From: Candidatus Hydrogenedentota bacterium
GTDB lineage: Bacteria > Hydrogenedentota > Hydrogenedentia > Hydrogenedentales > SLHB01
Assembly (NCBI GenBank): GCA_045863335.1
Contig: BTVY01000009.1
Location: 80,723-144,722, forward strand
Direction: 5' to 3'
DNA length: 64,000 nucleotides
The position numbers were made by a program, and so were the translations under genes. How positions within the stretch are numbered: the first letter of the stretch is position 1; every line of letters starts with the position of its first letter. The notes beneath the pieces are model-generated. The model ran no database searches. It was not told the DNA's origin and worked only from the letters and a program-made list of their open reading frames with translations. This document shows, piece by piece, positions 3,643-21,082 of this stretch.

Positions 3643-3768
3643 GCGAGGATTGTAGAGGCTTCGTGACGGCCAGGCAAGCCTTCCTGGACGGCTGTAAAAG
3701 TAAAACTCACTAGAAATGAGGACTCTGCTATAATCTCGACGCGCGAACGTTCGCGACAGGGGACAGTC

Positions 3769-4830: not shown

Positions 4831-4844
4831 AGACGGTGTGCGGC

Positions 4845-5972: not shown

Positions 5973-6125
5973 AAGAGGAAGAGTGTACCCGATCGCCACA
6001 GCCTGATAGAAGCGCCATTTTGAACCCGATCCGAGCTCATCTTTGGGCGCTCGATCAACCTCGCCGATCAAAAGTTGCAACGCATCCCCGTCATTCGCTA
6101 TAGTCTCGTCTCTCTTGGAACCCAC

Positions 6126-6201
6126 GGGGATGTAGCTCAGTTGGGAGAGCGCTTGTCTGGCAGACAAGAGGTCAGGGGTTCGATTCCCCTCATCTCCACC
6201 A
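6126..6201 (+). tRNA. tRNA-Ala (anticodon GGC)
   Basis: Full cloverleaf GGGGATG...CATCTCC-ACCA, G3:U70 alanine identity pair, anticodon arm CTTGT-CT-GGC-AG-ACAAG, TTCGATT T-loop. Confidence 0.98.
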
Positions 6202-6785
6202 TTTTTAACCTTCGCCGGTTCCCGGACTTAGAACCTCCACCCGTGATGGCGGCGCGGCCGTAACCTTGGCTGAAACGCGTGTCGTTTACACGCGCATCGA
6301 AAAGCCGACGGACGATGTCTGCGAATCGCCGGCCCGAGATTTCGACCTTGAGACTTCCCAAGGTCCACGCAGGGCGCTGTGATCCTCAAACTGCCACCAC
6401 ATCCGCCTCGGCATACACACCGACCTGAAAACAAAACAGAAGTGATTTCAGACCATCGCCGCGTGGTGAGTCAAAAACTGTGTGTTTTCCGATCATGCCT
6501 TCGCGATTGGTGTTGCCGAGTAATGCGCCGTTATCTGGCGAAAAGCCCGATGTGATTGCGCGATTACAGGCGACGACGTCCGCGTTAGCCCGGATCTTTT
6601 ATGCGCACAAGCAAGCGATCCGGAAAGTCCAAAGCGCACACATTTATGAAAGCAATTGGATTGATGGGATAGAGCAAGTCGGTTGTGTGGAATCCTCGCC
6701 AGCAAGCCTTGCAAGCTATCGCGGGGGCGTTTCCCGCCGAAGGATCGCTGGCGGGGCGCTGCCGAAAGGAAGTCGCAAAGCGGGG

Positions 6786-6850
6786 TTGACAATCGCGCCC
6801 AAATAGTGGATACTGCGGTCCAGAATAAACTGGATATACGGGTCCACAAT
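6786..6850 (+). promoter_or_regulatory. Sigma70-type promoter overlapped by two palindromic operator boxes (putative Rrf2 autoregulatory site)
   Basis: TTGACA (6786-6791), 17 bp, GATACT (6809-6814); TGGA-N8-TCCA at 6807-6822 and 6831-6846. Confidence 0.65.
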
Positions 6851-6864
6851 AGGGGGCGGCCGCC

Positions 6865-7314
6865 GTGTTCACCTTGTACTCCAAAGGCTGCGAATACACT
6901 TTTCGGGCACTGGTGCATGCCGCTACCGGAGACGGCAATGGGCGGTTCCAGGCCAAAGACGTCTGCCAAAAAGCCGGGATTCCGGAACCCTACACGCGAA
7001 AAGTCTTCCAGGCGCTGGTTCAAGGGGGACTCCTGAAAGCCGTTCGGGGACCGGGCGGCGGCTACGTCTTGGCGGAAGATCCATCGGAAATCTCCCTGCT
7101 TCGCGTAATCCGCGCCGTCGACGGCGAAGACACATTCGATGCTTGCGTGATGGGATTGCCGCAGTGTGACGGAAAGCATCCCTGCCCCCTTCATGAAGTC
7201 TGGTCCGGGGCTAAAGAACGCCTGCTGGAGCGATTGGAGAAGAACACACTGCAGGACCTGCTCGACGCCGCGACGGCTAAACCGGACCGAAAACAGAAAA
7301 GCAAGGGGAAGTAG
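6865..7314 (+). CDS. Rrf2-family Fe-S transcriptional regulator
   Basis: wHTH with RGPGGGY motif; C-x6-C-x5-C-x2-H cluster ligands (CVMGLPQCDGKHPCPLH). Confidence 0.92.
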   Translation: MFTLYSKGCEYTFRALVHAATGDGNGRFQAKDVCQKAGIPEPYTRKVFQALVQGGLLKAVRGPGGGYVLAEDPSEISLLRVIRAVDGEDTFDACVMGLPQCDGKHPCPLHEVWSGAKERLLERLEKNTLQDLLDAATAKPDRKQKSKGK

Positions 7315-7320
7315 ATCGGC

Positions 7321-9207
7321 ATGTCCGTGCAGGCAACCATACCCAACACGCAATACTGGAAGGATCAGATTAAGTGCCAGGCCGCGTGTCCTGTGCACAC
7401 GGACGCACGGGGGTATATCCGGGCGATTGCAGAGGGAAAGGAAGAATACGCGTATTTGATCGCGCGCGGTCCAAACCCGCTGGCCTCGATTTGCGGCAGA
7501 GTGTGCGGAGCGCCCTGCGAAACCGCATGCCGTCGCGGCGATTACGACGAACCCGTCGCGATCCGCGCCCTGAAACGGTATGTGTGCGACCAGTTCGGGC
7601 CGGAATCGCGTAATGACAATAAGAGTGGACTCTTGGATTTCCTCAAGAGTGCGGCGGAACAGTATCCAGCACGACAATGCCAGGGCAAAGAGGAGTTGCT
7701 CCCGCTTCTGCAATCGCTTCTCCGGCGGGACATTCCCAAAGCCAATGACTTGAGTGTGGGAATTATCGGCAGCGGTCCCGCGGGATTGGCGGCGGCGCAC
7801 GACCTTGCACTGCTGGGTTTCTCCGTAACGATCTACGAAATGGAACCAGTCCTCGCGGGCATGTTGGCCGTGGGCGTTCCGGAGTACCGGTTGCCGCGCG
7901 ACCTGATTCGAGCCGAAGTCGAAGTGATTACGACCATGGGCGTGCGTGCAGTCACGAATTGTTGCGTAGGGAGTGACATCAGCCTGCCCGAACTTCGAAC
8001 GCGGCACGACGCGGTCATCGTAGCTGCCGGCGCCAAACGTTCGCGCAGGCTGTCGATCCCCGGCGCCGATGGCGAAGGCGTTTTGGGCGGGGTTGAATAT
8101 TTACGCGACATCGCCCTCGGCCATCGCCCTTCACTTGGTCCCCGCGTCGTGGTCATTGGTGGCGGGAACGTCGCGTACGACGTCGGTCGAACCGTCTTGC
8201 GCCAAATCTCCCTGGACGCCGCGCGAACCGCGTTGCGCGCGGCCGGGGTCCGCGAGGTCTACTTGTGCTCGCTAGAGTCGCTGGAAGAGTTGCCCGCCGA
8301 CGACATCGAGATTATTGAAGGCGACGAGGAAGGCATCCAACGCCGGCACAGCCTGGGTCCCAAGGAGATTCTTCTGGACGAATCCGGCCTCGTCACCGGT
8401 GTCCGGTTCCAGCGCTGCGTACGCGTATTCGACGAGCAGCGGCGTTTCAGCCCAATCTTCGATGAAAGCGACTTGCTCGATGTTCCATGCGACAACGTAC
8501 TGATCGCCATCGGTCAATCGTTCGATCTTTCGTTTGTGGATGCCGAACGGGACGGACTTGCGCTGCGTTCCAACGGCGCGATTGACTGCGATCCCGAAAC
8601 CGGGTCGACCAGCGCTTCCGATGTCTTCGTCGCGGGCGACTTGGCGTACGGTCCCAAATTGCTCATTCACGCGGTCGCCTCGGGCAAGGCTGTCGCGCGA
8701 ACCATATACCGTCAATTGACGGGGCATGAAATTGTAGCGGACGACGTCGAACTGCACTTCCCGATCGCGCAATACACGCGTGAAGCGGATTATGAGAAAC
8801 GGTGCAGGATTACTCCGCCTACCGCATCGCCCGAGAAGCGGCTGGAGTCGATCGAGTGCATTGTCGAGCACGGGTACACGCGCGAACAGGCGCGAGCGGA
8901 AGCTTCCCGCTGCCTCAATTGTGGCGTCAACACAATCTTTGATGGCACGCAATGTGTTCTGTGCGGGGGCTGCGTCGAAGTCTGCCCGGAATTGTGCTTG
9001 CGTATCGTGGCTGCAGACCAATTGGAGGGGGCAGGAATCCAGGATCTGCTCCATTCCACCGGCGGTTCTCCCGAGAACGCATCCGCCATTATCAAAGACG
9101 AGTTGACCTGCATTCGCTGTGGCTTATGCGCCGAGCGCTGCCCGGTCGGCGCGATAACCATGGAAGAGTTTCATTTCAGGGAGACATTGTCATGCCAGGC
9201 CGTTTAG
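7321..9207 (+). CDS. FAD/NAD(P)-dependent iron-sulfur oxidoreductase (GltD/NfnB/DsrL-like) with C-terminal 2x[4Fe-4S] domain
   Basis: CQAACP...CGRVCGAPCETACRR, GSGPAG (FAD), GGGNVAYD (NAD(P)), CVLCGGCVEVCP and CIRCGLCAERCP; no signal peptide. Confidence 0.9.
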   Translation: MSVQATIPNTQYWKDQIKCQAACPVHTDARGYIRAIAEGKEEYAYLIARGPNPLASICGRVCGAPCETACRRGDYDEPVAIRALKRYVCDQFGPESRNDNKSGLLDFLKSAAEQYPARQCQGKEELLPLLQSLLRRDIPKANDLSVGIIGSGPAGLAAAHDLALLGFSVTIYEMEPVLAGMLAVGVPEYRLPRDLIRAEVEVITTMGVRAVTNCCVGSDISLPELRTRHDAVIVAAGAKRSRRLSIPGADGEGVLGGVEYLRDIALGHRPSLGPRVVVIGGGNVAYDVGRTVLRQISLDAARTALRAAGVREVYLCSLESLEELPADDIEIIEGDEEGIQRRHSLGPKEILLDESGLVTGVRFQRCVRVFDEQRRFSPIFDESDLLDVPCDNVLIAIGQSFDLSFVDAERDGLALRSNGAIDCDPETGSTSASDVFVAGDLAYGPKLLIHAVASGKAVARTIYRQLTGHEIVADDVELHFPIAQYTREADYEKRCRITPPTASPEKRLESIECIVEHGYTREQARAEASRCLNCGVNTIFDGTQCVLCGGCVEVCPELCLRIVAADQLEGAGIQDLLHSTGGSPENASAIIKDELTCIRCGLCAERCPVGAITMEEFHFRETLSCQAV

Positions 9208-9659
9208 AACCGGAACCCGTACCACGTCGTGATTTTCTTAATCTGGCCGGCCTCGGCACGGCCGCGATCGCGCTGCTGGCATCGGTAATAGGAATGGTGC
9301 GATTGCCGAAGCCGCGTGTCAGCCCGGAAGCGGCGAGCCGCTTTCGCGCCGGCAAACCCGCCGAATTCCCTCCGGGGACCGTGAAGGTATTTGCCGATCA
9401 AAAAGTCCGGGTACACGCCACGGACCAGGGCGTTGCGGCGGTCTCGCTGGTATGCACGCACTTGGGCTGCATTGTCGGTGAGAGCCCGGAAGGATTTCTG
9501 TGCCCTTGTCATGGGTCAAGGTTCAATCATGACGGCGATGTGATCGGAGGTCCCGCGCCTCGCGGTTTGCGGTGGTTGGAGGTCTCCCAGGCACCTGACG
9601 GGACTCTAGTAATTGACACCGCAACGGAAGCCCAACCGGGCGAGTACTACACCGCGTAA
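9192..9659 (+). CDS. Rieske [2Fe-2S] subunit of a Rieske/cytochrome b complex
   Basis: Tat anchor PRRDFL plus TM helix; CTHLGC and CPCHGS boxes; GPAPRGL; ATG at 9192. Confidence 0.93.
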   Translation: MPGRLEPEPVPRRDFLNLAGLGTAAIALLASVIGMVRLPKPRVSPEAASRFRAGKPAEFPPGTVKVFADQKVRVHATDQGVAAVSLVCTHLGCIVGESPEGFLCPCHGSRFNHDGDVIGGPAPRGLRWLEVSQAPDGTLVIDTATEAQPGEYYTA

Positions 9660-9673
9660 CGGGAGAGTAGTTT

Positions 9674-11221
9674 ATGGCATCCACGGGCCTCGATGCATTT
9701 TGGGAAAACCTGAAATCGTTGCCACGCGCGCTGCGTGGCGCGAGCATTCGCCATGGCGCGCCCACGTCCGACCGCACACGGTCACAGGCGGTGTTCAGCA
9801 ATTTCTTTCTACACATTCACTCCACACGCGTGCATCCCCACAGCCTCCGAACGACGACGACTTGGGCCCTTGGCGTGTCGCTGGCGTCCCAGTTTGTGAT
9901 ATTGGCCGCGACGGGCGTCCTTCTGATGGTGTATTACAAACCATCGGTCGACTTAGCCTACGACTCCATAAAGGATTTGCACTATGTCGTGCCGACCGGC
10001 CGGTTTATCCGCAACATCCACCGGTGGGCCGCGCATCTTATGGTAATCACGGTCATCCTCCACATGGCGCGCGTCTTCTATACGGCCGCCTACAAATCCA
10101 CGCGCGAGTTCAATTGGTTGATCGGCATGGCCCTGTTTGTTTTGACACTCGCGTTCTCGTTCACAGGCTACCTTCTGCCGTGGGATCAACTGGCGTATTG
10201 GGCGGTAACGATCGGCGCTAATATCGCCGCTTCGCCGAATGAACTGGCTGATGCGATGAGTTTGCCTGCGGTTTTTCGCTTGGGCGATTTACAGCGCGAA
10301 TTGCTGCTCGGCGCTTCGACGGTCGGTGAGGATGCATTGATACGCTTTTACGTGCTCCACGTCATTGTTCTGCCCATCCTGGTCGCCATGTTGATGGGGG
10401 TTCATTTCTGGCGTATCCGCAAGGACGGGGGACTAGCCCGTCCCGAAGGCACTCCCACACCTGCCGGAAAGGGTGTGTCGACGAGCGCACCGTCCACTCA
10501 GGCTCCCGAAAACGCCCCGACGAAGACTTACGGTCTCATGTGCGTGGTGCGAGGTCAATCACCCCATACCGATAAAGCCGTGGACGGAACCTGGCCGTCC
10601 TGGCCGTGCCTTCTTCGCGCGGAGTTACTTGTTTTCATGGCCACCATGCTGATTTGCGTCGCACTTGCTTTCTTCTTTGACGCGCCACTGCGAGAACAAG
10701 CCAACGCCGCCGTACCGGAAAACCCGGCCAAAGCGCCCTGGTACTTTCTCGGGCTTCAAGAGATGGTCTCGTACTCAGCCTTCGTCGGTGGTCTGGTGAT
10801 TCCGGCCATAACCGTTCTGGGGCTGGGGCTAATCCCGTTTCTCGACCGGGAACCCGAACCGGCGGGTGTCTGGTTTAGTGGCCGCCGAGGCCGCCGGGTG
10901 ACGTTGACTTCGCTTCTGTTCGGAGCTATCGGCGCAGTGCTCTCTGTCGCCGTCCCGGTGCGGTATGGATGGGTGCGAAACTGGTTTCCGGATATTTCCC
11001 AATTGGCCGTCATCGTCTTCAATCCGGGCAGTCTATTGATGGTCGCATACATGCTTTGGTCGATTGCGGTCATGCGGTGGACCCGCTCGACTCGCATGGG
11101 CGCCATTGCGCTGTTCACATGCTTCCTCGTGGGCTTCGTGATTCTCACCTACGTGGGCACTTATTTGCGCGGGCCCAATTGGGGGTTCTACTGGAGCCAG
11201 GCAAGTTGGCCGGTTCACTAA
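9674..11221 (+). CDS. Cytochrome b (b6-like N-terminus fused to subunit-IV-like domain plus extra TM helices)
   Basis: Heme ligands H-x13-H (RNIH...VILH) and H-x14-H (YVLH...MGVH), FTGYLLPWDQ, NPAKAPWY at the PEWY position. Confidence 0.93.
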   Translation: MASTGLDAFWENLKSLPRALRGASIRHGAPTSDRTRSQAVFSNFFLHIHSTRVHPHSLRTTTTWALGVSLASQFVILAATGVLLMVYYKPSVDLAYDSIKDLHYVVPTGRFIRNIHRWAAHLMVITVILHMARVFYTAAYKSTREFNWLIGMALFVLTLAFSFTGYLLPWDQLAYWAVTIGANIAASPNELADAMSLPAVFRLGDLQRELLLGASTVGEDALIRFYVLHVIVLPILVAMLMGVHFWRIRKDGGLARPEGTPTPAGKGVSTSAPSTQAPENAPTKTYGLMCVVRGQSPHTDKAVDGTWPSWPCLLRAELLVFMATMLICVALAFFFDAPLREQANAAVPENPAKAPWYFLGLQEMVSYSAFVGGLVIPAITVLGLGLIPFLDREPEPAGVWFSGRRGRRVTLTSLLFGAIGAVLSVAVPVRYGWVRNWFPDISQLAVIVFNPGSLLMVAYMLWSIAVMRWTRSTRMGAIALFTCFLVGFVILTYVGTYLRGPNWGFYWSQASWPVH

Positions 11222-11236
11222 TCGGGGTTACATAAC

Positions 11237-12775
11237 GTGCAGAATCAAATCGATCACAGCCGGATGAATCAACGCTTCAAGTGGTGGCTGTTGGTGGTCA
11301 GTGTGTTGACGACTGCCATTCTCATCGTCGCCGCATTGAGCGAAAATGTATTTGCTCCCTGGCGGATGATCCGCCAGGATTACGCGCGCGTCCTTGAGGA
11401 AAAGGCCACCGATGACCGCGGTAAAGCCATCGCCGGCCAATTTGAAGTCCGTATCGTCCAAAACGTATTGCCCGAACTGGCTACAATCGACCGCTGCATT
11501 ACGTGCCATCCCGGCATCGACGATCCACGCATGACGGATGCAAAACTTCCATTTCGGACCCATCCCGGCGACTACCTCATCCACCATCCGCCGGACAAAT
11601 TCGGTTGCACCGTGTGCCATCGTGGGCAAGGCCGCGCGCTCGTCTTTGAAGAGGCGAAGGCGGTAGGGCATCACTGGGACTATCCCTTGCTTCCCGCGAA
11701 TCTGACTCAGTCTTCCTGCGGGCTCTGTCATACGGACGAGGAGATTGCGAACGACGGCGGTGAGAAGTACGCGTTGGGAAAGGCGCTCTTCGATTCCAAA
11801 GGCTGCGTGGCTTGTCACAAGTTGAACGGCCGGGGCGGAAGTCTGGGTCCCGGACTCGATGGCGTCGGCCTGAAGGTCAGAGCCCAGCTTCCAATGGCGT
11901 CAGTGAAAGGGGACCACACGCTGCCGCAATGGCTCCTCGAACATTTTGAGGATCCGCAACGGGTCGTCGCAAATAGCCTCATGCGGCCGCCGCAGCTCAG
12001 CGCGGCAGAAAACGAAGCATTGACGATCTACATGCTGTCGCTCCAAGATCGCGATCTGCCGAAGAGCTATCTTTCGCCGCACAAGCACCGAGAATTCTAC
12101 GATCAGCACTTTCCCCAACCGCAATCCGGCGAAGATCTATTCAATCAGTACTGCGCGGTTTGCCATGACACGGGCGAATACGGCCGGTACGACAAGTTTT
12201 ACAAGAAGTTCATTCCGGCAATTCGTGGCTCGTCACTCGTACAGGCCGCGTCCGCCGAGTATTTCGATGAGAACATTCGAAGAGGCCGCCCCGGAACGTT
12301 GATGGTGCCTTGGAACACGGAAACAAGCGGATTGTCCGGCGAAGACTTATCCAAGATCACCGAATACTTGCGTAGCGCGCCTGTACCGGACGGTGAGAGA
12401 CTCGCCCCTGAACTTGAGCAGATTGCCGCCGATTCGAGTTTTCGGGCTGTGGGCGGCGTGTCACGCGGACTCGACCTGTTCCGGCGGCATTGTGTCGGTT
12501 GCCACGGTCCCGTCGGCGAGGGACAACTTGGTCCGGCGATCAATAACCCTGTGTTTCAGCAAACCGCAACGGACGGATTTCTCTTCGTAACCATCGCTGC
12601 CGGCCGCCGCAATACGGCCATGCCCGGTTTCCTCAACGAAGGGCAAGGCGGCTTAACAGAGGAAGACATTTCCAGCCTGGTCGCCTATGTTCGATCTCTT
12701 GGCGCCGAGCCAACATCGCAAGTAGCTGACGGGAATGTGGAGTCGAGCAACCCGGCGCTTGCCAGGAGTAACTAG
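11237..12775 (+). CDS. Membrane-anchored hexaheme cytochrome c
   Basis: N-terminal TM helix; six CxxCH motifs (CITCH, CTVCH, CGLCH, CVACH, CAVCH, CVGCH). Confidence 0.92.
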   Translation: MQNQIDHSRMNQRFKWWLLVVSVLTTAILIVAALSENVFAPWRMIRQDYARVLEEKATDDRGKAIAGQFEVRIVQNVLPELATIDRCITCHPGIDDPRMTDAKLPFRTHPGDYLIHHPPDKFGCTVCHRGQGRALVFEEAKAVGHHWDYPLLPANLTQSSCGLCHTDEEIANDGGEKYALGKALFDSKGCVACHKLNGRGGSLGPGLDGVGLKVRAQLPMASVKGDHTLPQWLLEHFEDPQRVVANSLMRPPQLSAAENEALTIYMLSLQDRDLPKSYLSPHKHREFYDQHFPQPQSGEDLFNQYCAVCHDTGEYGRYDKFYKKFIPAIRGSSLVQAASAEYFDENIRRGRPGTLMVPWNTETSGLSGEDLSKITEYLRSAPVPDGERLAPELEQIAADSSFRAVGGVSRGLDLFRRHCVGCHGPVGEGQLGPAINNPVFQQTATDGFLFVTIAAGRRNTAMPGFLNEGQGGLTEEDISSLVAYVRSLGAEPTSQVADGNVESSNPALARSN

Positions 12776-12776
12776 T

Positions 12777-15734
12777 ATGTCGCCATTGAAAGACCAGTCC
12801 AATGAACACGGGATCAGCCGCCGGCAATTGCTGAAAACGGGAGGATTGCTGGGCTTCGCGGCGCTGTTTCCACCAAGCGCCCGGGCCGCCCTCGAAGAAT
12901 TCGACATTGTCGATGTCAATCCGCTGGAGAACTATCCGTACCGCGGATGGGAAGATCTGTACCGCAAGCAGTTCACTTGGGACCGCGTCGTCCGCTCGAC
13001 CCATTCGGCGAACTGCACCGGGTCCTGCTCGTGGAAAGTGTACGTCAAGGACGGCGTCATGCTTCGCGAAGAACAGGCCGCCGACTATCCGCGGATCAGC
13101 GAAGATCTGCCGGACTACAATCCGCGTGGTTGTCAGAAGGGCGCGTGTTTCGTCGAGTACGTGTACGGCGCCCAGCGGCTCCGGTATCCCCTCATTCGAA
13201 TGGGCGAGCGGGGAGAGGGGAAGTGGCGCCGGGCCTCCTGGGATGAGGCTCTCCAGCTTATCGCGGAGAAGGTGCTCGACAACGTATACAATTATGGACC
13301 CGATACCAATACGTTCTTTTCGGTCATCCCGGCCATGTCCCCCGTATCGTTTTCGGCGGGATCGCGCCTGGCGCACTATCTGGGCGGCGTGTTTTGTTCG
13401 TTCTACGATTGGTACTGCGATTTGCCGCCGGGTGAGCCGATTACGTGGGGCGTACAAACCGAATCGTGCGAATGCGCCGACTGGTTTAATTCGAAATACA
13501 TCGTGCTATGGGGAAGCAATATCTGCCAAACGCGAATCCCCGACGCGCACTTCGCGTGGGAGGCGCGTTATAACGGCGCGCGAATTGCCTGCGTCTCGCC
13601 CGACTACAACAGCAGCGCCATTCACTGCGACCAGTATGTCCAGATTCAACCCGGCACGGACGCCAAGCTGGCACTTGCCGTTTGCCGCTGGCTGATTGAG
13701 AACAATCACATCGACGAGCCTTACGTGAAGATGCACACTGACCTGCCGCTACTCATTCGCACGGATACCCAACAGTTCTTGCGAGCTGAAGATCTGCCCG
13801 CCAACGAGCGTGGTGCTGTCCCCAACACGAGTTCCTGGTCAGGTGAGATTGCTTCGGAGGACGGGACGCCAGACCTTCAGGCGGTCTTCTATGTCTTCGA
13901 TCGCGTGGCCAACCGTATCGCGCAAGTGCCCGGCAGCATGGGCTCGCCCGCCCAGTCACTCGATCTTGGCGGCTTGGATCCAACGCTTGAAGGAACGTGG
14001 AATGTGACGTTGGCCGACGGAAGCGTCGTGCAGGTTACCACCGTGTTCAGTCGGCTCAAGGAAACACTGGCCTCATCGGACTATTCAGCGTCGGGCACGG
14101 CCCGATCCTGCGGTTTGACTGAACGAGATTTCCTCGAGTTCGCGAAGGGGTTTACACGAAAACCGGCAATGATTATTCACGGTGCCGGCACCAATCACTG
14201 GTATCACAACGACCTCTTGAATCGTGCCATGATACTGGTCGTGGCATTGACGGGAAACGTCGGCAAGAACGGCGGCGGGTTCAATCACTACGTGGGGCAG
14301 GAACGCATCTGGCCCGAGCATGGATTCAAGACGCTGGCATTTCCCGAGGGCGGCTCGAAGCAGCGGTTTCAGAACATGACCCTGTGGACGTATTGCCATA
14401 GCAAGCAGCATGACCCACACCCGATCAACGGCAAGCCGATCGAGCACTACATTCTGGACTCCGTCCGGAACGGATGGATGCCGCTGTGGCCGAAGAACGA
14501 TTGGGCAAGCCTCACTCCCGAGCAAATGCACGATCTACCCCGCAAGCCGCGCGCCTTATTCGTCTGGCGCGCGAACTATCTCAACCAGGCGAAAGGCAAT
14601 GAAGCAATTATTCGATCACTCTGGAAAGACCTGGATCTGATTGTCGACATCAATTACCGCATGGACACTACCGCGCTTTACAGCGACATCGTGTTGCCTG
14701 CTTCAACCTACTATGAGAAGACGGACCTCAACTCAACGGACTGCCATTCGTTTATGCATCCGTTCTCGAAAGTGCTGGACCCGCTGTTCGAGTCAAAGAC
14801 CGATTGGGACATCTTCGCTGCATTGGCAAAAAAAATTGAAGAAGTTGCGAGGTCGCAAGGGCTATCGCCGTATGAGGACCAGGCACTGGACTGGTCGCGG
14901 GACTTCTCCCAGTTGTATGCAGCCTGGTCCGCGCAGGGTTCTCTACAGACCGATGAAGAAGCCTGCAATTTCATCCTCGGTCATTCCCCGGAAACGCAAG
15001 GGATGACGTATCACGGCATACAAGACCAGCCCAAACGATTCGTTGGCATCGATGCGGAAGCGTGGAATAGCGAGGTCGAGGAAGGCCGCGCCTATGCGCC
15101 CTTCACCCATCAGATCGAGAAAAAGCGGCCCTGGCGGACACTGTCCGGAAGGCAACAGTTCTACATCGACCACCCCTGGTTTATTGATTTCGGCGAGCAG
15201 CTTCCTGTCCACAAAGAGCCCGTCGAGGATGTCGAGTACCCTCTATACTGGAACACGCCTCATGGCCGCTGGTCGATTCACTCAACCTGGCGCGACAACC
15301 GCTACATGCTTCGTCTCCAGCGCGGGTTGCCCATCGTGTACCTTCACCCCGACGACGCAACGGCGCGGGGAATTTCCGACAACGATTGGGTTCGGATATA
15401 CAACGGCGAAGGTGAAGCGATTGTACAGGCGAAGATACTGCCCGGCGAAAAGGCCGGTCGCCTCACCATGTACCACGGCTGGGAAAAGTTTCTCGGATTC
15501 CAAAACGGCGGCTGGCAGTCCCTCACGTACATCAAGATTAAACCGACTCAACTCATTGGTAAATATGGGCATTTGAATTTCAAACTGAACTACTGGGGAC
15601 CCACCGGGAACAACCGCGATATTCGAGTCGAGATCGCCAGGTATGACGGTCCTATTGCGGAATTCGAGCCGAACTCTCCGGCCGGATCGGAGTCGCGAGT
15701 CGATCCTCCGGTCGCGGGAACTAAGGTCTTATAA
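12777..15734 (+). CDS. narG: Tat-exported type II DMSO-reductase-family molybdoenzyme alpha subunit (periplasmic NarG-like)
   Basis: AGGAG RBS then ATG 12777; Tat SRRQLLK...ARA; FS0 motif HSANCTGSC...NPRGCQKG; FYDWYCDLP (Asp Mo ligand as in NarG); TPHGRWSIHS. Substrate not proven. Confidence 0.8.
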   Translation: MSPLKDQSNEHGISRRQLLKTGGLLGFAALFPPSARAALEEFDIVDVNPLENYPYRGWEDLYRKQFTWDRVVRSTHSANCTGSCSWKVYVKDGVMLREEQAADYPRISEDLPDYNPRGCQKGACFVEYVYGAQRLRYPLIRMGERGEGKWRRASWDEALQLIAEKVLDNVYNYGPDTNTFFSVIPAMSPVSFSAGSRLAHYLGGVFCSFYDWYCDLPPGEPITWGVQTESCECADWFNSKYIVLWGSNICQTRIPDAHFAWEARYNGARIACVSPDYNSSAIHCDQYVQIQPGTDAKLALAVCRWLIENNHIDEPYVKMHTDLPLLIRTDTQQFLRAEDLPANERGAVPNTSSWSGEIASEDGTPDLQAVFYVFDRVANRIAQVPGSMGSPAQSLDLGGLDPTLEGTWNVTLADGSVVQVTTVFSRLKETLASSDYSASGTARSCGLTERDFLEFAKGFTRKPAMIIHGAGTNHWYHNDLLNRAMILVVALTGNVGKNGGGFNHYVGQERIWPEHGFKTLAFPEGGSKQRFQNMTLWTYCHSKQHDPHPINGKPIEHYILDSVRNGWMPLWPKNDWASLTPEQMHDLPRKPRALFVWRANYLNQAKGNEAIIRSLWKDLDLIVDINYRMDTTALYSDIVLPASTYYEKTDLNSTDCHSFMHPFSKVLDPLFESKTDWDIFAALAKKIEEVARSQGLSPYEDQALDWSRDFSQLYAAWSAQGSLQTDEEACNFILGHSPETQGMTYHGIQDQPKRFVGIDAEAWNSEVEEGRAYAPFTHQIEKKRPWRTLSGRQQFYIDHPWFIDFGEQLPVHKEPVEDVEYPLYWNTPHGRWSIHSTWRDNRYMLRLQRGLPIVYLHPDDATARGISDNDWVRIYNGEGEAIVQAKILPGEKAGRLTMYHGWEKFLGFQNGGWQSLTYIKIKPTQLIGKYGHLNFKLNYWGPTGNNRDIRVEIARYDGPIAEFEPNSPAGSESRVDPPVAGTKVL

Positions 15735-15745
15735 GGAGCACACCG

Positions 15746-17047
15746 ATGTCGAAGCACCAATACGCCATGGTGATGGACCTCAACAAGTGCATCGGTTGCC
15801 AGACCTGCACGCTGGCGTGCAAGAAGCAGTGGACCGATGGCGACGGCATGGACTACATGTATTGGAATAACGTGGAGACCCATCCCGGCATCGGATATCC
15901 GCGCGGTTGGCACACGATCGGAGGCGGATTCGATGCGCGCCGTAACTTGCGGCCGTCTCCATTGCCGCCCAAAGAGGACTACGGCGAGGCATTCGAGTAT
16001 GACTACGGGCAACGCCTCTACGGCGGGCGGAACAAGCCCGTGATGCCGAACCGGCCGCCCACGTACACGCCAAACTGGGACGAAGACGTGGGCGGTTGGG
16101 ACAAGGACAATCCCTATTTCTTCTATTTGCCCCGAATCTGCAATCACTGCACCCATCCGGCCTGCCTCGAAGCGTGCCCGCGCAAAGCGATCTACAAGCG
16201 CACGGAAGACGGCATCGTGTTGATCGACCAGGAACGGTGCCGCGGATTCCGATACTGCATTAAGGCCTGCCCGTACAAGAAGATCTACTACAACGAAGTG
16301 ACCGGCAAGAGTGAAAAGTGTATCTTCTGTTATCCGCGCCTCGAAAAGGGCCAGGTCAACGCCTGCGCCGCTCAGTGTCCGGGTCGCATCCGGTTTGTCG
16401 GTCTCTTGGACGATCCCGAGTCTCCAGTGCACAAACTCGTATTGAAGTATCGTGTGGCGCTGGGCCTCTTTCCCGAAAAGGGCACCCATCCCAATGTTTT
16501 CTATGTGCCGCCCTTTAATCCCCCGAAAGCAGGGAGCGCGGGCAAGAGCATTCTCGAGGACCCGCGGCTGCCCCTGGACTACCTCATCTACCTGTTCGGT
16601 CCCGACGTTGTGCGCGTCATCCAATTCATGGAGGGAGAGCTGACGAAAGCACAGTCAGGTGGACAGAGCGAAGTGCTTCAATTGCTCATCGGACGAGACG
16701 CTTCCGTTCGATATCGCGTTGTTCCCGACATTGTGCGCGCGGCTGCAAACCGGGACGTGGCGCAGAAGATGGAGCAGTCGCCGGCGGGGGGGCCGCCTCA
16801 GGCGATTCTCGGAACGCCTGCTCAATCCGGTGTCAAACCGCCGCCGGCCAGGCACGCGCTCGGTTCCAAGCACGTCCCTCCCACGCCGGAGGTTGCGATG
16901 GCGTTTGGCGTTCCTGTAGACAATCCCGGCTCATCGTGCAACACATCGATAGGAGCGGGTTGCGCGGGCTGCGCTGCGCAAACGGCCTGTGGGGCCGCGC
17001 AAAAGGGACCGCGCCACCCAGGTGAGGAGGGAATGACATGGACGTAA
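15746..17047 (+). CDS. narH: Fe-S beta subunit (NarH-like) with Pro/Ala-rich linker and Cys-rich C-terminal extension
   Basis: DLNKCIGCQTCTLACK, CNHCTHPACLEACP, CRGFRYCIKACPY, KCIFCYPR...CAAQCP. Confidence 0.85.
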   Translation: MSKHQYAMVMDLNKCIGCQTCTLACKKQWTDGDGMDYMYWNNVETHPGIGYPRGWHTIGGGFDARRNLRPSPLPPKEDYGEAFEYDYGQRLYGGRNKPVMPNRPPTYTPNWDEDVGGWDKDNPYFFYLPRICNHCTHPACLEACPRKAIYKRTEDGIVLIDQERCRGFRYCIKACPYKKIYYNEVTGKSEKCIFCYPRLEKGQVNACAAQCPGRIRFVGLLDDPESPVHKLVLKYRVALGLFPEKGTHPNVFYVPPFNPPKAGSAGKSILEDPRLPLDYLIYLFGPDVVRVIQFMEGELTKAQSGGQSEVLQLLIGRDASVRYRVVPDIVRAAANRDVAQKMEQSPAGGPPQAILGTPAQSGVKPPPARHALGSKHVPPTPEVAMAFGVPVDNPGSSCNTSIGAGCAGCAAQTACGAAQKGPRHPGEEGMTWT

Positions 17048-17772
17048 TGCGTGCGATACTCGTAATGGCAATCGTGGGATTCGCCTCGGCTGCCGCCGAA
17101 CCAAATGCCGAAGATAAGGCGGCGTTGGAAATACCATCCGAAGCCGCTCCTGAGGTTTCCGTCGAGGAGCTGTTGGACGCGGACAATGCGGCGTGGCGTG
17201 CGGCTCCCGCATTTGCCGTCCATTTCAACCGAACCCCTCCTGTCTATGCGACCGACACGATGGACGACGGCGACCGTCCGTCGATGACCGTCCAGGTTCT
17301 GCGGCTGCCAAGCAATGACGTTGTATTTCGCGTTCAATGGCAGGACCCGACTGCCGATCAGGTGGCGAGCGGCGCCCGTTACCCGGATTCCGGAGAAGAC
17401 CACATTTACAAAAGCCATTCAACGGCAACGGATACATTCCCGGACGCCTTCTGCATTATGGTTCCCAAGCAACGCGGGCAGCATCTCTCGTATCCGTCCA
17501 TGATGATGGGCGAAGGAAGCAACCCTGTCGATCTCTATTATTGGAAGGCCGGAAAGGGATTCGAGCTTTTGAATGCCCATGGCCGCGCCACGACTGCCGC
17601 TGTCGCTGAGGAGGTTCGCGGTTCCGCGCGTCGTGCCGCCGATGATTGGACCGTGACCATGGCATTACCAAATCTGACCAGCCAAACTCCTGTTTGTTTC
17701 GCGCTCTGGAATGGAGACAAGGATCACCGGGACGGCCTGAAGTACTTTAGCTTGTGGTATGAGGTGGAGTGA
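17038..17772 (+). CDS. Periplasmic heme-b gamma subunit (EbdC/ClrC-like)
   Basis: Sec signal peptide, FPDAFCIM, SMMMG (Met ligand), FALWNG...RDGLK (Lys ligand); lies after alpha and beta. Confidence 0.8.
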   Translation: MDVMRAILVMAIVGFASAAAEPNAEDKAALEIPSEAAPEVSVEELLDADNAAWRAAPAFAVHFNRTPPVYATDTMDDGDRPSMTVQVLRLPSNDVVFRVQWQDPTADQVASGARYPDSGEDHIYKSHSTATDTFPDAFCIMVPKQRGQHLSYPSMMMGEGSNPVDLYYWKAGKGFELLNAHGRATTAAVAEEVRGSARRAADDWTVTMALPNLTSQTPVCFALWNGDKDHRDGLKYFSLWYEVE

Positions 17773-18410
17773 TGACAGACCTTGCCCATAAGGAAGTCGA
17801 AACAAGTCCCGACATGCTTCTTGAGTGCGCCATGGCTTGGAAATATCTGCACGATCTTTTTCACGGCCCCAGCCCCGAGCAGTGGCGTTGGCTTCAGTCT
17901 GAATCCGCACAGGCCGCATGGCGGCTTCTGGCACAGTGGACCGGGCTTGAGAACTACGCCACGTTGCCGCTTGCGAATTCCTACGACTCGTACGCCGGGG
18001 AATATGTGGCCGCCTTCGAGGTCGGTCTTCCAGAGCCCCCGTGCCCGCTCATCGAGTCCCACTGGAACAAGCGAGATCCGGTGCCAAAAGTGCTCCACGA
18101 GAATATGCTGTTCTACAAACAGTTTGGACTGGAACTTCGCTCGTCGAGCAATGAAACTGCCGACCACCTGCGCCACCAGTTGGAATTTGTGCATCACCTA
18201 TTCCGGATGGAGCGGGAAGCGGTCATCGGCAACCGCATGGAGCACGCGGACCAGTGCGCCAGGGCACGAATCGAGTACTTGAACCGCCATCTCGGGTTCT
18301 GGGTGCCTCGGGCGTACCTTGCACTCGACAAGAAAATGCCAGGTTCGTGGTGCGCCCAATGGATGTTTTTGCTTTCCCAGTTTTGCCAGGAATTCTGTAC
18401 GGAACACTGA
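17769..18410 (+). CDS. TorD/DmsD/NarJ-family molybdoenzyme maturation chaperone
   Basis: EYVAAF...CPLIES...FYKQFGL...ETADHLRHQLEF motif series. Confidence 0.88.
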   Translation: MMTDLAHKEVETSPDMLLECAMAWKYLHDLFHGPSPEQWRWLQSESAQAAWRLLAQWTGLENYATLPLANSYDSYAGEYVAAFEVGLPEPPCPLIESHWNKRDPVPKVLHENMLFYKQFGLELRSSSNETADHLRHQLEFVHHLFRMEREAVIGNRMEHADQCARARIEYLNRHLGFWVPRAYLALDKKMPGSWCAQWMFLLSQFCQEFCTEH

Positions 18411-18495
18411 CGCGGGAAAACCACGGCATTCGCTAGACCGCGTATGAATAACTGAGGATAAAGGACCTTCCTGCTACCGAATTCAAGGAGGAGTC

Positions 18496-18951
18496 ATGGA
18501 GATTCGGCACATCTACATATCGCCCGGTCACAATTTTCGCGGCCATCACGGACGGGAACCGGATGCCCATCCCGTCCTTGAGCTTATGGAAGTCGAGTGC
18601 GTCGCAGGGAAAGGCCTGATCGGCGACCGATACTACTGCTACGAAGAGAACTACAAGGGCCAGATTACGTTCTTCGCCTGGGAGGTCTATCAAGATCTTT
18701 GCCGGCAGCTTTCCGTATTTGACCGTGACCCCTCTGTGCTGCGTCGAAACGTAATTGTGGAAGGTGTGAACCTTAACAGTCTTGTAAATTCCGAATTCAC
18801 GATCCAGGGGGTGGAGTTCTTTGGCGTCGAGGAGTGTTCCCCGTGTTACTGGATGGAGCGCGCGTTCGCACCCGGCGCTGAAGAGGCGTTGAAGGGCAGG
18901 GGAGGACTGCGGGCGCGAATCGTATCCAACGGACTTCTGCAAAGACTTTGA
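18496..18951 (+). CDS. MOSC-domain protein (molybdenum cofactor-binding)
   Basis: GLIGDRY, LRRNVIVEG, CSPC, GRGGLRARI; GGAGG RBS. Confidence 0.85.
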   Translation: MEIRHIYISPGHNFRGHHGREPDAHPVLELMEVECVAGKGLIGDRYYCYEENYKGQITFFAWEVYQDLCRQLSVFDRDPSVLRRNVIVEGVNLNSLVNSEFTIQGVEFFGVEECSPCYWMERAFAPGAEEALKGRGGLRARIVSNGLLQRL

Positions 18952-19546
18952 GGTCTTAGGAGCATCCCACGCTATTTGCGACATAGGTGAACCTCCCTCC
19001 GACGCAAAACAAGTCATTCAACCGGGTGACATCCAAGGTTTTGGAGTGCGACGCACCTTGGCGGTGTCTTCATGCTCCTGCGTCTTCGATAGGATCCGCA
19101 TGACGGCAATGGGACTTGCCTTCGTGCCATGCCGGTATTGGAATCTCGAGATAGTCGAGCGGCGTCGTGCCGAGGTTAGCGATCGCGGCGTCGGGTGCCA
19201 GCGTTCGGTCGGCAAACAGCATTCGCGCGCTGATGTCCACGGCTGAAGCCACATGGTCTCCGCTCATTTGACGAGGTTCGGCTCGAATAACGCATGCGGT
19301 GCAGTGCCTTCGCGCGTTTGCCCACCTGCATCGGCTTAAACCATACGGAGATATTGGCGCTCGCCCGCGAAAGCTGGCTTGTGAGATTCCGGGCGAATGC
19401 GCGTAATCAAGATTCCTCTATTCGCTATGTCAAACACTTGCTGGCGACCGGTGCGATCGCGTCAGTGCCGTCGCCGTCCGGCGACGAATTTCCGAACGTC
19501 TTCACCTGATTGCAGTGTGGTTGCAAGTATCCGGCGTTTCCTATGA

Positions 19547-21082
19547 TCACGTCCCGTCTTTAAGGACCAATATCCAGTCGTTGCCGTCGCCGGGGCTGTC
19601 CGGTGGGTCGAACTCCTGGATGGGAGCGGAGGGCCCGCTGGGAATGTTCTCCAAGAAGGCCGTTGCATCGGCGAACTCTTTGTCGTCAGCTCTCCATTGT
19701 CCGTTGCGGGGATTGAACCAATAGGCGCTCTTTGGTTGCGGCGAAAGCCGGTCCATCTTGACGCGGATGTTCCGGCCGTTGGCGCTGTATACCATGGCGT
19801 AATCGCCGTTGGCGCCGCGTGTGGCTTGTAGACAGCTCGAGCGAACTCCTTCCCCGACGTCCATGCCTCCGGTATCGCCGTCGATCAGCGTTTGGTCCGG
19901 AATCCGGTCCAGAAACTGGTCGTTGGAAAGGGTTGCCATGAGGTCAACGAGATGCCGCATATCGATGGCGCCAGGTTCGTCGAGGCCGGCTTTCCACCCA
20001 CGGGCGTTGTCGGTGGTGACGGGTTCGTCCAGGTCTAACACTCCGCTGTCAAAATGGAATACGTTCATGCTTCCGTAGGTGATCCCGAAGCCTCCGGCGA
20101 AGACGGTCTGATAGGACTGGAATCGGATCTGCCAGTCCCTGTAGACGCTATCGCCCCGGGTGCGGGCCTCATATCCGCCTTCGAAGAGCCATGTGGGTTT
20201 CGCCGGAGACAAGCGGTAATCATGTTCCACTGCGACGTTTTGGTCGGTGGGTTGGTCCTGGATCGAGTTGAAGTCCAGCCAAGGGTCGTTGTGGAACCAT
20301 TCCGATGAGTTCGGATGCCACTTTCGTGGGTGGTAACTCATGATCGTCGTGCCGTAATCGGCCTGCAAATCCTGCTTGTCGACGTTATTCACGCCATCGG
20401 CGACACCTTCCGCCACAGCCCGAAACACGGGCCGGTAGTCCCTGTCGCCATACACGGCACTACGGTCTCCGCCGATCATCCAGATCACATTCTTCTTGTC
20501 GTGAAATCGCCGGCCGATCCAGCGGCCGTATCCGTATGCGTTGCCGGAATTCAGAACGATTTCCTCGGTGGGTTCGCCCTTCACGTAACTTCCCGCCACG
20601 CTTCCGCCCCACGCAGGGAGCAAGATCACCGCCAATCCATGGGCGTCTGCCACGTCGATGATATATTGCAGGTGATCCCAGTAGTCGTATTCCTCGGGAT
20701 CTTCGGAGTTCTCCCCCGGCGTGGTAATGGGACGTTCCGGATTCCAGGCGCCCTCCCGAACCTCAAATGGATAGTCTCCGTACGCATTGGCCTCGATACG
20801 AAGTCCTTCGTAAGAGGGGAAGGCGACTAGTGCAACTGTGTTGAATCCCTGCTCCTTTCGGTGCTGGAGATAATGCTCGACGTCTTCGCGCGTCAGTTTC
20901 CACGCGATCGCCCAAGCGGTATCGGCCACGGCGAAGAACCCCGTGCCGTCCGGGTGGATCAAGAAGCGGCCATTGTCGCTGACGCGTAGATCATTGGCGC
21001 CTTCGGCCCAAAGGGGCGTTCCCGGAAGGAATATGGATAGGATCGATAGAACGAGGCACGATAAGTGGGTTTTCAGTTTCAA
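19547..21082 (-). CDS. Secreted DUF4038 / GH140 (apiosidase-like) glycoside hydrolase with C-terminal beta-sandwich domain
   Basis: TTG start at 21082 with signal peptide; LRVSDNGRFL...ADTAW, WMIGGD, WFNPRNG...DWILVL. Confidence 0.78.
   Translation of the reverse strand: MKLKTHLSCLVLSILSIFLPGTPLWAEGANDLRVSDNGRFLIHPDGTGFFAVADTAWAIAWKLTREDVEHYLQHRKEQGFNTVALVAFPSYEGLRIEANAYGDYPFEVREGAWNPERPITTPGENSEDPEEYDYWDHLQYIIDVADAHGLAVILLPAWGGSVAGSYVKGEPTEEIVLNSGNAYGYGRWIGRRFHDKKNVIWMIGGDRSAVYGDRDYRPVFRAVAEGVADGVNNVDKQDLQADYGTTIMSYHPRKWHPNSSEWFHNDPWLDFNSIQDQPTDQNVAVEHDYRLSPAKPTWLFEGGYEARTRGDSVYRDWQIRFQSYQTVFAGGFGITYGSMNVFHFDSGVLDLDEPVTTDNARGWKAGLDEPGAIDMRHLVDLMATLSNDQFLDRIPDQTLIDGDTGGMDVGEGVRSSCLQATRGANGDYAMVYSANGRNIRVKMDRLSPQPKSAYWFNPRNGQWRADDKEFADATAFLENIPSGPSAPIQEFDPPDSPGDGNDWILVLKDGT

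Follow-up and report, generated by a model that had tools for sequence, protein, structure and literature searches.

We report that a ten-gene cluster of a Candidatus Hydrogenedentota bacterium joins, in one conserved and mobile block of genes, a flavoprotein-Rieske/cytochrome b-hexaheme cytochrome c module to a NarG-like molybdoenzyme predicted to be exported by the twin-arginine translocation (Tat) system. The cluster lies at positions 6865-18951 of a 64,000-nucleotide stretch of contig BTVY01000009.1 (assembly GCA_045863335.1), referred to here as the window. We tentatively read it, with confidence that stays below even, as a single mobile operon for periplasmic nitrate respiration, in which a dedicated Rieske/cytochrome b complex would carry the flavoprotein (F) as a subunit of its cytochrome b and F would preferably work in the NAD(P)+-reducing direction.

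The interval was exactly spanned by ten open reading frames (ORFs) on the + strand, which were assigned from the ORF list and from Pfam and NCBIfam scans as follows.

6865-7314, +, Rrf2-family regulator (PF02082, 113 bits; TIGR00738, 104 bits) with Cys94, Cys101 and Cys107 in a C-x6-C-x5-C arrangement

7321-9207, +, flavoprotein F, 628 amino acids, with an N-terminal Fer4_20 domain (two [4Fe-4S]), a Pyr_redox_2 domain and a C-terminal ferredoxin domain (two [4Fe-4S])

9192-9659, +, Rieske 2Fe-2S protein, 155 amino acids (PF00355), with a twin-arginine motif, one membrane helix, CTHLGC and CPCHGSRF

9674-11221, +, fused cytochrome b6/subunit IV, 515 amino acids, with a Cytochrome_B domain and an ExtQ-like subunit-IV part

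11237-12775, +, hexaheme cytochrome c, 512 amino acids, with cytochrome c domains, a membrane-anchoring helix near its N-terminus (residues 17-35) and six CxxCH motifs

12777-15734, +, NarG/PcrA-like alpha subunit with a molybdenum-bis(pyranopterin guanine dinucleotide) cofactor, 985 amino acids (TIGR03479), with HSANCTGSC, FYDWYCDLP and HYVGQE (Glu509)

15746-17047, +, iron-sulfur (FeS) beta subunit, 433 amino acids (TIGR03478 over residues 3-322), with a C-terminal extension of about 110 residues

17038-17772, +, heme-b gamma subunit of the EB_dh fold (EB_dh/PF09459, 41.4 bits against a cut-off of 33.3) with a Sec-type leader

17769-18410, +, NarJ/TorD-type assembly chaperone (PF02613, Nitrate_red_del, 55.8 bits; TIGR03482, 93 bits, under its cut-off)

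18496-18951, +, MOSC-domain protein (PF03473)

Two of the starts were corrected. The Rieske ORF runs from 8952 to 9659, and its likely start is the ATG at 9192, which gives MPGRLEPEPVPRRDFL with a twin-arginine motif followed by one hydrophobic helix; the alpha ORF runs from 12735 to 15734, with a likely start at 12777 (MSPLK...SRRQLLK). After correction, the intergenic gaps were +6, -16, +14, +15, +1, +11, -10, -4 and +85 bp, the F stop and the Rieske start overlapping by 16 bp. These values agree with the first-pass annotation, which had described the first nine genes as at most 15 bp apart or overlapping, with MOSC 85 bp further on, and its gene content and Tat/Sec topology were also borne out by the domain scans and leader signals. 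The ten proteins gave no Pfam or NCBIfam match to NarI or to transporter families, the rest of the genome not having been searched for narI or narK. A promoter-like site with 10 of 12 consensus matches was located at 6786-6814 (+), upstream of Rrf2; the scan of 6000-19700 as a whole returned four promoter-like and 13 terminator-like sites, compared with 5.3 and 13.2 in shuffled sequence, which amounts to no signal, and it contained no internal terminator of note. The beta extension (approximately residues 320-433, window 16700-17047) reaches beyond the type II family model, and its C-x2-C-x5-C motif was kept in five of five aligned homologues; this tail could be a metal-binding or docking element.

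Conservation of the gene order was assessed with the hexaheme cytochrome c as the query, as it is the most distinctive of the proteins and lies at the junction of the two halves. A total of 86 loci were obtained, comprising six from one-genome-per-species contigs and the best 80 of 395 metagenome relatives (four-sequence alignment). Two of the six were the halves of one cluster in a 96%-identical metagenome-assembled genome (MAG) labelled 'uncultured Nitrospiraceae', and the remaining four carried the record labels unclassified bacterium, Zixiibacteriota MAG, Armatimonadetes MAG and Ignavibacteria MAG. A tblastn search with the ten window proteins found the same order in each of these loci, as far as the contigs extend, with 70-75% identity of alpha across these phylum-level labels. 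A hexaheme homologue of at least 42% identity was present in 25 of the 86 loci. In 18 of these, a NarG-like alpha gene (60-96% identity) followed directly 3' of the hexaheme gene at a spacing of -42 to +141 bp, and the other seven contigs stop no more than 124 bp past the hexaheme gene; no locus contradicted the hexaheme-alpha pairing. On contigs that were long enough, F was found in 7/7, beta in 9/9, gamma in 8/8 and the chaperone in 8/8 cases. A same-strand Rrf2 gene stood ahead of F in L005, L010, L017, L042 and L006, and a MOSC gene was found in only one of the 86 loci (L001), though it lies inside the mobile block in the window's genus. The conserved core is thus F, Rieske, cytochrome b, hexaheme c, alpha, beta, gamma and chaperone. 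The first-pass annotation had proposed that the two halves belong together, and the recurrence of this order across phylum-level labels and metagenomes indicates that the join is not accidental.

Two of these loci showed individual features. In L010, the alpha gene was split into two slightly overlapping pieces (L010:6954-9678; pieces 6954-8372 and 8368-9678), which suggests a frameshift or an assembly error, and L002 carried a second, distant Rieske/cytochrome b pair (L002:1338-2547, - strand; 32-34% identity) 3.5 kb upstream of its conserved cluster.

Comparison with congeneric genomes revealed that the block is mobile. Window positions 6220-19567 form a 13.3-kb insertion/deletion (indel) relative to the congener G005, and this segment holds the whole Rrf2-to-MOSC block. 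By blastn, positions 1-4232 of the G005 locus L093 corresponded to window 23799-19568 and positions 4318-8001 to window 6219-2532, with 85 bp between them. The genes on either side, a methyltransferase-like gene at 4845-6167 (-) and an apiosidase-like gene at 19547-21430 (-), are neighbours on G005 contig C3. A tRNA-Ala(GGC) gene at 6126-6201 (+), located with ARAGORN, ends 18 bp before the left indel edge. The copy of the block that G005 itself possesses (95-99% protein identity) lies on other contigs, and its downstream flank matches contig C17 of G000; similarity between the window and this copy starts at about 6786, just 5' of Rrf2 (L006 5548-5650 = C9 87508-87608 = window 6786-6886). No direct repeats were detected at the indel edges, a repeat search of 6000-19800 having returned short two-copy families only. 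Among the 41 genomes of the window's order, its own included, hexaheme matches with E < 1e-100 occurred in four (G000, G005, G033 and G030); G026 gave a partial match (2.7e-59), and the other four congeners (72-93% complete) gave no real hexaheme match. These results indicate that the complete block changes its position within the genus as a single unit, and that it is probably a horizontally mobile operon.

The window's genome measures 6.75 Mb and is 99.4% complete. Both flanks of the block (420-6167 and 19547-27616) encode permeases and binding proteins of sugar-type ATP-binding cassette (ABC) transporters, as well as a glycosidase resembling apiosidases, a beta-helix protein and a member of the DHDPS family, and the host is likely a polysaccharide-degrading heterotroph, judging from these genes. 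Together with the size of the genome, such flanks cast doubt on the name 'Nitrospiraceae' under which the 96%-identical MAG is recorded. The complex I markers PF00346 and PF00146 had no match in the 99.4%-complete genome, and two NqrB/RnfD-type genes were present (C47 and C29). In the flanking gene families, the apiosidase-like matches G003:C876:348-2225 and G005:C3:27369-29243 each contained one in-frame TGA, and the methyltransferase-like match in G004 contained one TAG.

Sequencing runs gave information on habitat and expression. Twenty-one listed runs from 13 studies hold the stretch or part of it, and the labelled ones are bioreactor, sludge, wastewater and biofilm metagenomes. RNA evidence was drawn from four runs (X2, X17, X18 and X19), in all cases as assembled contigs. 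These contigs bridged F and Rieske (X17, 9108-9617), hexaheme and alpha (X19, 12703-12953; X18, 12735-12913), alpha and beta (X17, 15153-16152) and beta, gamma and chaperone (X17, 16367-18157). Out of 30 bins, X2 covered 30, X17 23, X18 14 and X19 11, uncovered parts being no evidence of silence; the X17 contigs differ from the window by about 4% and come from a relative whose flanks may differ. The RNA contigs are weakly consistent with co-transcription. As regards the possibility, raised at first pass, that the two halves are transcribed separately, the contigs across the hexaheme/alpha junction speak against it, although only weakly. In X2, recorded as single-organism RNA-Seq of 'organism A', 91% of the sampled words were found and window 6000-19600 was covered at one flat depth, genes and flanks alike; this sample seems to contain the bacterium, or DNA from it, as a passenger.

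F lacks a signal peptide, and none of its segments is strongly hydrophobic. Its closest solved structures were 9bov, 8oh5_C and NfnA/NfnB/NfnI chains, followed by GltD, in line with the GltD/NfnB-like label given to it at first pass, and an ESM Atlas search with F returned generic FAD/FeS oxidoreductase clusters only. Throughout the 86 loci, F lay directly 5' of Rieske whenever it was present, and its stop often overlapped the Rieske start. F-linked cytochromes b contained an insertion in the linker between their b6 and subunit-IV parts, which lies on the cytoplasmic side according to the known topology of b6 and subunit IV. The motif K[TS][YF][GST]L[ML] of this linker, which reads KTYGLM in the window (residues 284-289), occurred in all 21 distinct F-linked cytochromes b and in none of 14 distinct F-less ones, the F-less class comprising only loci that reach far enough upstream to show F missing. 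On a quick cytochrome b tree with Shimodaira-Hasegawa-like approximate likelihood ratio test (SH-aLRT) support, the contrast occurred in both major branches, which implies at least two independent events.

When the entire cytochrome b was modelled together with F residues 440-628, two hemes and two clusters, the predicted complex scored 0.48, compared with 0.01 for the best of three controls. The mark set for this score was reached by 58 of 80 solved complexes and by 2 of 110 mismatched pairs; at scores of 0.60 or below, it was attained by only 7 of those 80 and by both of the mismatched pairs that passed. Between runs, 83% or more of the contacts agreed, with a partner predicted local distance difference test score (pLDDT) of at least 75. 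The verdict on the proposed docking of F on cytochrome b was weak support. Gene order, linker motif and structural model together suggest that F may be a subunit on the cytoplasmic face of cytochrome b that joins the b hemes to NAD(P)(H).

The Rieske protein had 9rk4 as its best solved match (E 5e-19) and 9rk3 as its third. By their molecule names and their box II residues (Ser/Tyr and Ser/Phe), 9rk4 and 9rk3 look like the anammox proteins Kuste4569 and Kustd1480. The window protein reads CTHLGC in box I and CPCHGSRF in box II, that is, Ser + Phe, and the box II Ser was present in 37 of 38 sequences. Kustd1480 also has Ser + Phe and a measured potential of +335 mV (partial text of PMC12954380), and the haloarchaeal Nar-linked Rieske proteins, with Gly + Phe, have a low predicted potential, below +200 mV (partial text of PMC3509893).

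Cytochromes b6 were the nearest solved structures of the cytochrome b, and its best NCBIfam models were ExtP (241.6 bits, cut-off 290) and ExtQ (60.8 bits, cut-off 150). Four b6-type helices are followed by five more in the subunit-IV part, where APWY takes the place of PEWY. His116, His130, His229 and His244 were invariant in 18 of 18 sequences, and all 56 sequences examined kept His47 near the N-terminus, which might belong to the extra heme b found in the anammox models. The hallmarks of the b6f branch were all found (C-x-H-x-G-C, C-x-C-H, four His ligands and a PEWY-type motif). The CxGG motif for covalent heme cn was absent, the window reading WALGV, and the Cys occurred in 0 of 56 related cytochromes b. 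In the hexaheme protein, the CxxCH motifs start at residues 87, 124, 161, 190, 306 and 419, and all six were invariant in four of four aligned homologues; the ExtS model matched it weakly, under its cut-off of 100. The resemblance to anammox Rieske/cytochrome b complexes noted at first pass gained from the Rieske matches 9rk4 and 9rk3, the five-helix subunit IV and the six hemes, as described in the partial text of PMC12954380.

The alpha subunit scored 1114.8 bits with TIGR03479 (cut-off 984.75), which assigns it to the type II dimethyl sulfoxide (DMSO) reductase family, and beta scored 485.4 bits with TIGR03478 (cut-off 480.7); gamma, above the PF09459 cut-off, remained below that of TIGR03477 (95.3 versus 169.85). 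Gamma aligned weakly with NxrC and EbdC, and its Met157 and Lys235 fell on EbdC Met108 and Lys201, which we take to be the heme b ligands. The Tat signal of alpha consists of SRRQLLK near the N-terminus, with 18 bits for the Pfam TAT_signal model, below its cut-off of 22.7. The FS0 motif HSANCTGSC (H-x3-C-x3-C) and FYDWYCDLP, the Asp of which is presumably the Mo ligand, aligned with the PcrA and NarG motifs. Among solved structures, PcrA (4ydd, 5e7o) was closest at 917 bits, followed by E. coli NarG (about 565), EbdA (380) and Kuenenia NxrA (247). PcrA Trp461 is reportedly (Youngblut et al. 2016) the perchlorate-specific gate residue. At this position 4ydd reads HYIGQW, the variant 5e7o HYIGQE, and both E. 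coli NarG and the window HYVGQE. Motif searches found HYVGQE and FYDWYCDLP in 121 of 121 family members, namely the window and 120 database matches at 65% identity or more.

Two assignments of the molybdoenzyme fitted poorly. Against a cytoplasm-facing NarGHI stand the TIGR01580 score (651 versus 1084 bits), the lack of a NarI-like gene among the ten and the presence of a Tat signal, and against a perchlorate reductase of the PcrA kind the Glu at the Trp461 position and the lack of a chlorite dismutase match in the genome.

In the 99.4%-complete genome, the chlorite dismutase family PF06778 had no match, NrfA was present (448 bits), and no NapA scored above cut-off. A tblastn search of the rest of the genome with alpha gave weak, 23%-identity matches only, and no other Nar/Nxr-type enzyme was found. 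All 11 alpha homologues with an organism label were MAGs. One of the homologues, 75% identical, is labelled Ca. Hinthialibacter antarcticus, whose describers inferred NarGH and NrfAH and a conversion of nitrate to ammonium; the word 'Rieske' does not occur in the partial text of that paper (PMC9324843). Nitrate is the likely substrate of alpha as judged from its sequence and genome, because of the Glu at the PcrA Trp461 gate, the presence of NrfA and the lack of a chlorite dismutase.

Related modules were found beside other enzymes. On the quick cytochrome b tree, the window grouped with L002 (periplasmic Nar-type), L050 and L028 with 99% SH-aLRT support, and the periplasmic Nar-type label changed at least three times. 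In L050, L023, L019 and L026, the genes for F, Rieske and cytochrome b adjoined an alpha gene whose product is 25-27% identical to that of the window, and the alpha proteins of L023 and L050 had Kuenenia NxrA (7b04) as their best solved match, at 940 and 852 bits. These NXR-type loci also encode beta, and the hexaheme gene stands after (L019, L023:3-11461, L026) or before (L050) the enzyme genes; the match coordinates and identities of L051 equalled those of L050, and the two may be a single sequence entered twice. In the locus L027:6022-16279, F, Rieske, cytochrome b and the hexaheme protein came ahead of two cytochromes c, a NosZ of Tat type, which scored 821 bits with TIGR04244 (cut-off 625), and a gene resembling NosR, so that the flavoprotein-Rieske module there seems to be connected to nitrous oxide reductase. 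In L028:1194-13792 and L030:5971-15832, F, Rieske, cytochrome b and cytochromes c were followed by a 909-amino-acid Nap/Fdh-like molybdoenzyme, which scored 260-304 bits with NapA models, below their cut-offs, and by ferredoxins; L028 alone had Rrf2 ahead of the module, and two ferredoxins and then a NapH-like protein after the molybdoenzyme. The F-Rieske-cytochrome b core has thus been recombined with several periplasmic N-oxide enzymes, and every partner seen beside it, among loci drawn with one cytochrome c query, is a high-potential N-oxide enzyme. Because NosZ and Nap act as reductases, the module would deliver electrons outward.

In the reading that we prefer, menaquinol would be oxidised at the Qo site of the dedicated b6-type Rieske/cytochrome b complex. 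The high-potential electron would pass from the Rieske cluster to the membrane-anchored hexaheme c, and then through the gamma heme b and the beta FeS chain to the Mo of the Tat-exported alpha, where nitrate would be reduced to nitrite; NrfA, encoded elsewhere in the genome, could reduce the nitrite further. The low-potential electron would travel through the b hemes to the FeS clusters of F, to FAD and to NAD(P)+, the drop from menaquinol to nitrate supplying the energy, and the NAD(P)H would re-enter the chain through Nqr, raising the number of ions moved per nitrate. With potentials of about -70 mV for menaquinone, about +420 mV for nitrate and -320 mV for NAD(P), about 490 mV is gained on one electron and about 250 mV is spent on the other. 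The outward path is drawn from the topology and from models for the haloarchaeal periplasmic Nar and other type II enzymes. The sequences themselves show which genes are present, their topology signals, the shared order, the joint mobility, the active-site motifs of NarG type and the linker motif specific to F-linked cytochromes b, and we infer all electron paths, the substrate, the physical binding and the direction of F. Reduction of NAD(P)+ by Qo bifurcation, by analogy with the anammox complexes, is possible, and we hold it with reserve; the proposal for those complexes is Kartal's, as told in the partial text of PMC12954380. Bifurcation would fit the consistently high-potential partners and the Ser-type Rieske, and it would be sensible even for a heterotroph, since NAD(P)H can pass again through an ion-pumping dehydrogenase.

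Several observations weigh against this reading. CxGG is lacking in all 56 examined members of the clade, while the anammox models that support bifurcation retain heme cn (partial text of PMC12954380), which leaves the analogy incomplete; neither this loss nor His47 nor the Rieske box II Ser separates F-linked from F-less complexes, and all three are thus uninformative on F. The 21/21 versus 0/14 motif contrast reflects few independent evolutionary events on a quick tree, with kinship inflating the counts, and the complex prediction gave weak support only. A sugar-degrading heterotroph has ample NAD(P)H and no obvious need to reduce NAD(P)+. Alpha scores under the NarG equivalog cut-off, as gamma and chaperone do under those of their TIGRFAM subfamilies. 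The related type II enzymes include chlorate, perchlorate and selenate reductases as well as enzymes that oxidise their substrates, and the sequence gives no certain substrate. In run X2, coverage is as even over the flanks as over the genes, so that DNA carry-over is possible, and a contig over two genes is no proof of a single transcript. Finally, G005 is a MAG, and the different position of its block could partly reflect strain binning.

The evidence for F as a subunit fits equally well with electron flow in the opposite direction, in which NAD(P)H would feed FAD, the FeS clusters and the n-side b heme and so reduce menaquinone at Qi, with quinol being oxidised at Qo. We consider this somewhat unlikely, and give the same standing to its corollary, a self-contained NAD(P)H:nitrate oxidoreductase in which a non-pumping NAD(P)H dehydrogenase is built onto the Q-cycle. 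The host, probably a heterotroph in view of the genes for sugar ABC transporters and glycosidase-like enzymes to either side of the block, would have NAD(P)H to dispose of, and the unmatched complex I markers would make an extra entry for NAD(P)H useful; in addition, solved GltD/NfnB-type relatives take electrons from NADPH, and the ferredoxin:NADP+ reductase bound to chloroplast b6f offers a precedent of kind. However, the two NqrB/RnfD-type complexes can already bring NADH to quinone with ion pumping, as Hauser et al. also argue for Kuenenia, calling the input direction wasteful (partial text of PMC12954380), and only high-potential partners were seen in the one-query sample, which bifurcation needs and input does not. 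F might instead stand outside the complex, as a separate, co-transcribed cytoplasmic enzyme, for instance of redox balancing or cofactor supply, beside an ordinary Rieske/cytochrome b:cytochrome c:nitrate reductase chain that runs a normal Q-cycle. It has no membrane segment and belongs to a very broad family of FAD/FeS oxidoreductases of about 600-650 amino acids, its predicted binding is weak, and the 14 distinct related Rieske/cytochrome b/cytochrome c loci that verifiably lack F indicate that the core works alone. This arrangement is nevertheless most improbable, since F occurred in all seven periplasmic Nar-type loci that were long enough, always directly 5' of Rieske and often overlapping it, stayed with Rieske/cytochrome b while the periplasmic partners changed, and was tracked by the cytoplasmic motif of cytochrome b. 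A remainder of the odds on the role of F falls to readings other than these three.

The other element of the preferred reading, nitrate reduction by alpha, was weighed against respiration of chlorate, perchlorate or selenate and against an enzyme running in reverse, oxidising nitrite or another substrate and feeding the cytochrome c/Rieske chain. PcrA is the best solved relative of alpha, its score falls short of the NarG equivalog cut-off, those type II enzymes with a heme-b gamma that have been characterised span many substrates, and the same Rieske/cytochrome b module adjoins NXR-type enzymes elsewhere, NXR being reversible. We nevertheless regard these alternatives as very unlikely. The NarG-like Glu is kept at the PcrA gate throughout the 121 family members, the genome gives no chlorite dismutase match, and NrfA is available to consume nitrite; as for the reverse direction, the module is also paired with NosZ and a Nap-like enzyme, both reductases, tblastn revealed no second Nar/Nxr-type enzyme, and the flanks suggest a heterotroph.

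More generally, F-Rieske-cytochrome b-multiheme c might be a mobile 'plug-in' for periplasmic N-oxide reductases, bifurcating quinol electrons, the high-potential one paying for the N-oxide reduction and the low-potential one leaving as NAD(P)H, which re-enters via Nqr or complex I, a generalisation that we hold to be rather doubtful. If it were true, denitrification and nitrate ammonification would yield more energy through such a 'super Q-cycle', and the mechanism proposed for anammox would extend to common wastewater and sediment bacteria. If the module truly serves periplasmic Nar, NXR-type, Nap-like and NosZ enzymes, gene surveys of denitrification and nitrate ammonification overlook a coupling device with an effect on growth yields; in such surveys, these genes often bear no more than the labels 'NarGH' and 'glutamate synthase small subunit'. 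For the periplasm-facing Nar, how energy is conserved is an old question, to which the operon gives a conserved and testable answer in the form of a dedicated Rieske/cytochrome b complex. The anammox proposal of Qo bifurcation has been hard to test, and one of the two complexes has no known exergonic partner (partial text of PMC12954380). A like module hard-wired to a defined partner reaction, on a compact and transferable operon in bioreactor, sludge and wastewater bacteria, would provide a test system for it.

Among known systems, the haloarchaeal narB/narC cluster is similar in that Rieske and cytochrome b genes lie directly 5' of those for a NarGH-type enzyme that is exported by Tat and has a b-type cytochrome in the periplasm, that NarI is lacking and that quinol is thought to reach nitrate via Rieske/cytochrome b (partial texts of PMC3509893 and PMC4683180). 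Haloferax NarG is 45% identical to PcrA (PMC8301774), which places the periplasmic Nar enzymes in the same neighbourhood as the window alpha. The haloarchaeal order, Rieske-cytochrome b-(hypothetical)-NarG-NarH, resembles that of the window for Rieske, cytochrome b and alpha; however, it contains no cytochrome c gene and no flavoprotein, and the window adds the hexaheme c and F. The haloarchaeal Rieske, with Gly + Phe, is predicted to be low-potential, in contrast to Ser + Phe in the window, and the haloarchaeal Rieske/cytochrome b is described as kin to those of Actinobacteria and Thermus (partial text of PMC3509893), whereas the window protein is nearest to b6, a comparison made by description only. 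In Methanoperedens, the Nar and Rieske/cytochrome b clusters are apart (PMC4683180).

The anammox complexes Kuste4569-4574 and Kustd1480-1485 share with the window a cytoplasmic NAD(P) FeS oxidoreductase, a Rieske protein, a cytochrome b of b6-like type, a subunit IV with five helices and, instead of cytochrome f, a cytochrome c with six or eight hemes (partial text of PMC12954380), the likeness of F, cytochrome b and multiheme c being one of description and that of Rieske alone one of structure match. They differ in that the window has cytochrome b and subunit IV fused and lacks CxGG for heme cn. The partner in the window is a NarG-like enzyme of the same operon, whereas in Kuenenia one complex has an HAO-like octaheme and the other no proposed exergonic partner (partial text of PMC12954380). 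Until now, an NAD(P)-binding flavoprotein of this kind has been considered chiefly in connection with anammox.

PcrAB(C)D and the Ser, Clr, Ddh and Ebd enzymes match the second half of the operon in their alpha/beta/gamma/chaperone composition, the H-x3-C-x3-C and Asp ligand motifs and Tat export, PcrA giving 917 bits; PcrA differs in its Trp461 gate, which is Glu in the window, and the window's genome is without a chlorite dismutase match. Type II enzymes with a heme-b gamma are reported to receive electrons from soluble cytochromes fed by the housekeeping bc1 complex, whereas the window has a dedicated Rieske/cytochrome b complex in the same operon. The Nap-Rieske/cytochrome b-epsilonHao cluster of Caldithrix abyssi also places Rieske/cytochrome b within a periplasmic nitrate reductase locus, as proposed donors via multiheme cytochromes, but it is Nap-type, its carrier is the tetraheme NapM rather than a hexaheme, and no flavoprotein is described (all in the partial text of PMC5317091). 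Geobacter ExtP and ExtQ supply the best NCBIfam models for the window cytochrome b, and ExtS weakly matches the hexaheme; all window scores lie below the cut-offs (290, 150 and 100), so that the window is not a member, and its b6 and subunit IV are fused.

The architecture is not described in the partial texts of the Zixibacteria RBG-1 (PMC3903129) and Nitrospina (PMC3578206) papers. No published description of the combined operon, its conservation or its mobility was found in the searched literature, outside which lay most subscription journals and supplements, in keeping with the first-pass view that the architecture had not already been characterised; the supplementary trees of PMC5600118 may list similar operons. 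The first-pass label of a new respiratory system was overstated, since, as Dibrova et al. 2017 had already noted, genes of FeS oxidoreductases that bind NAD(P) lie close to such cytochromes b 'in many other cases' (partial text of PMC5600118). Each half of the operon is of a known kind, and what appears to be new is their union in one operon, together with its conservation and its mobility.

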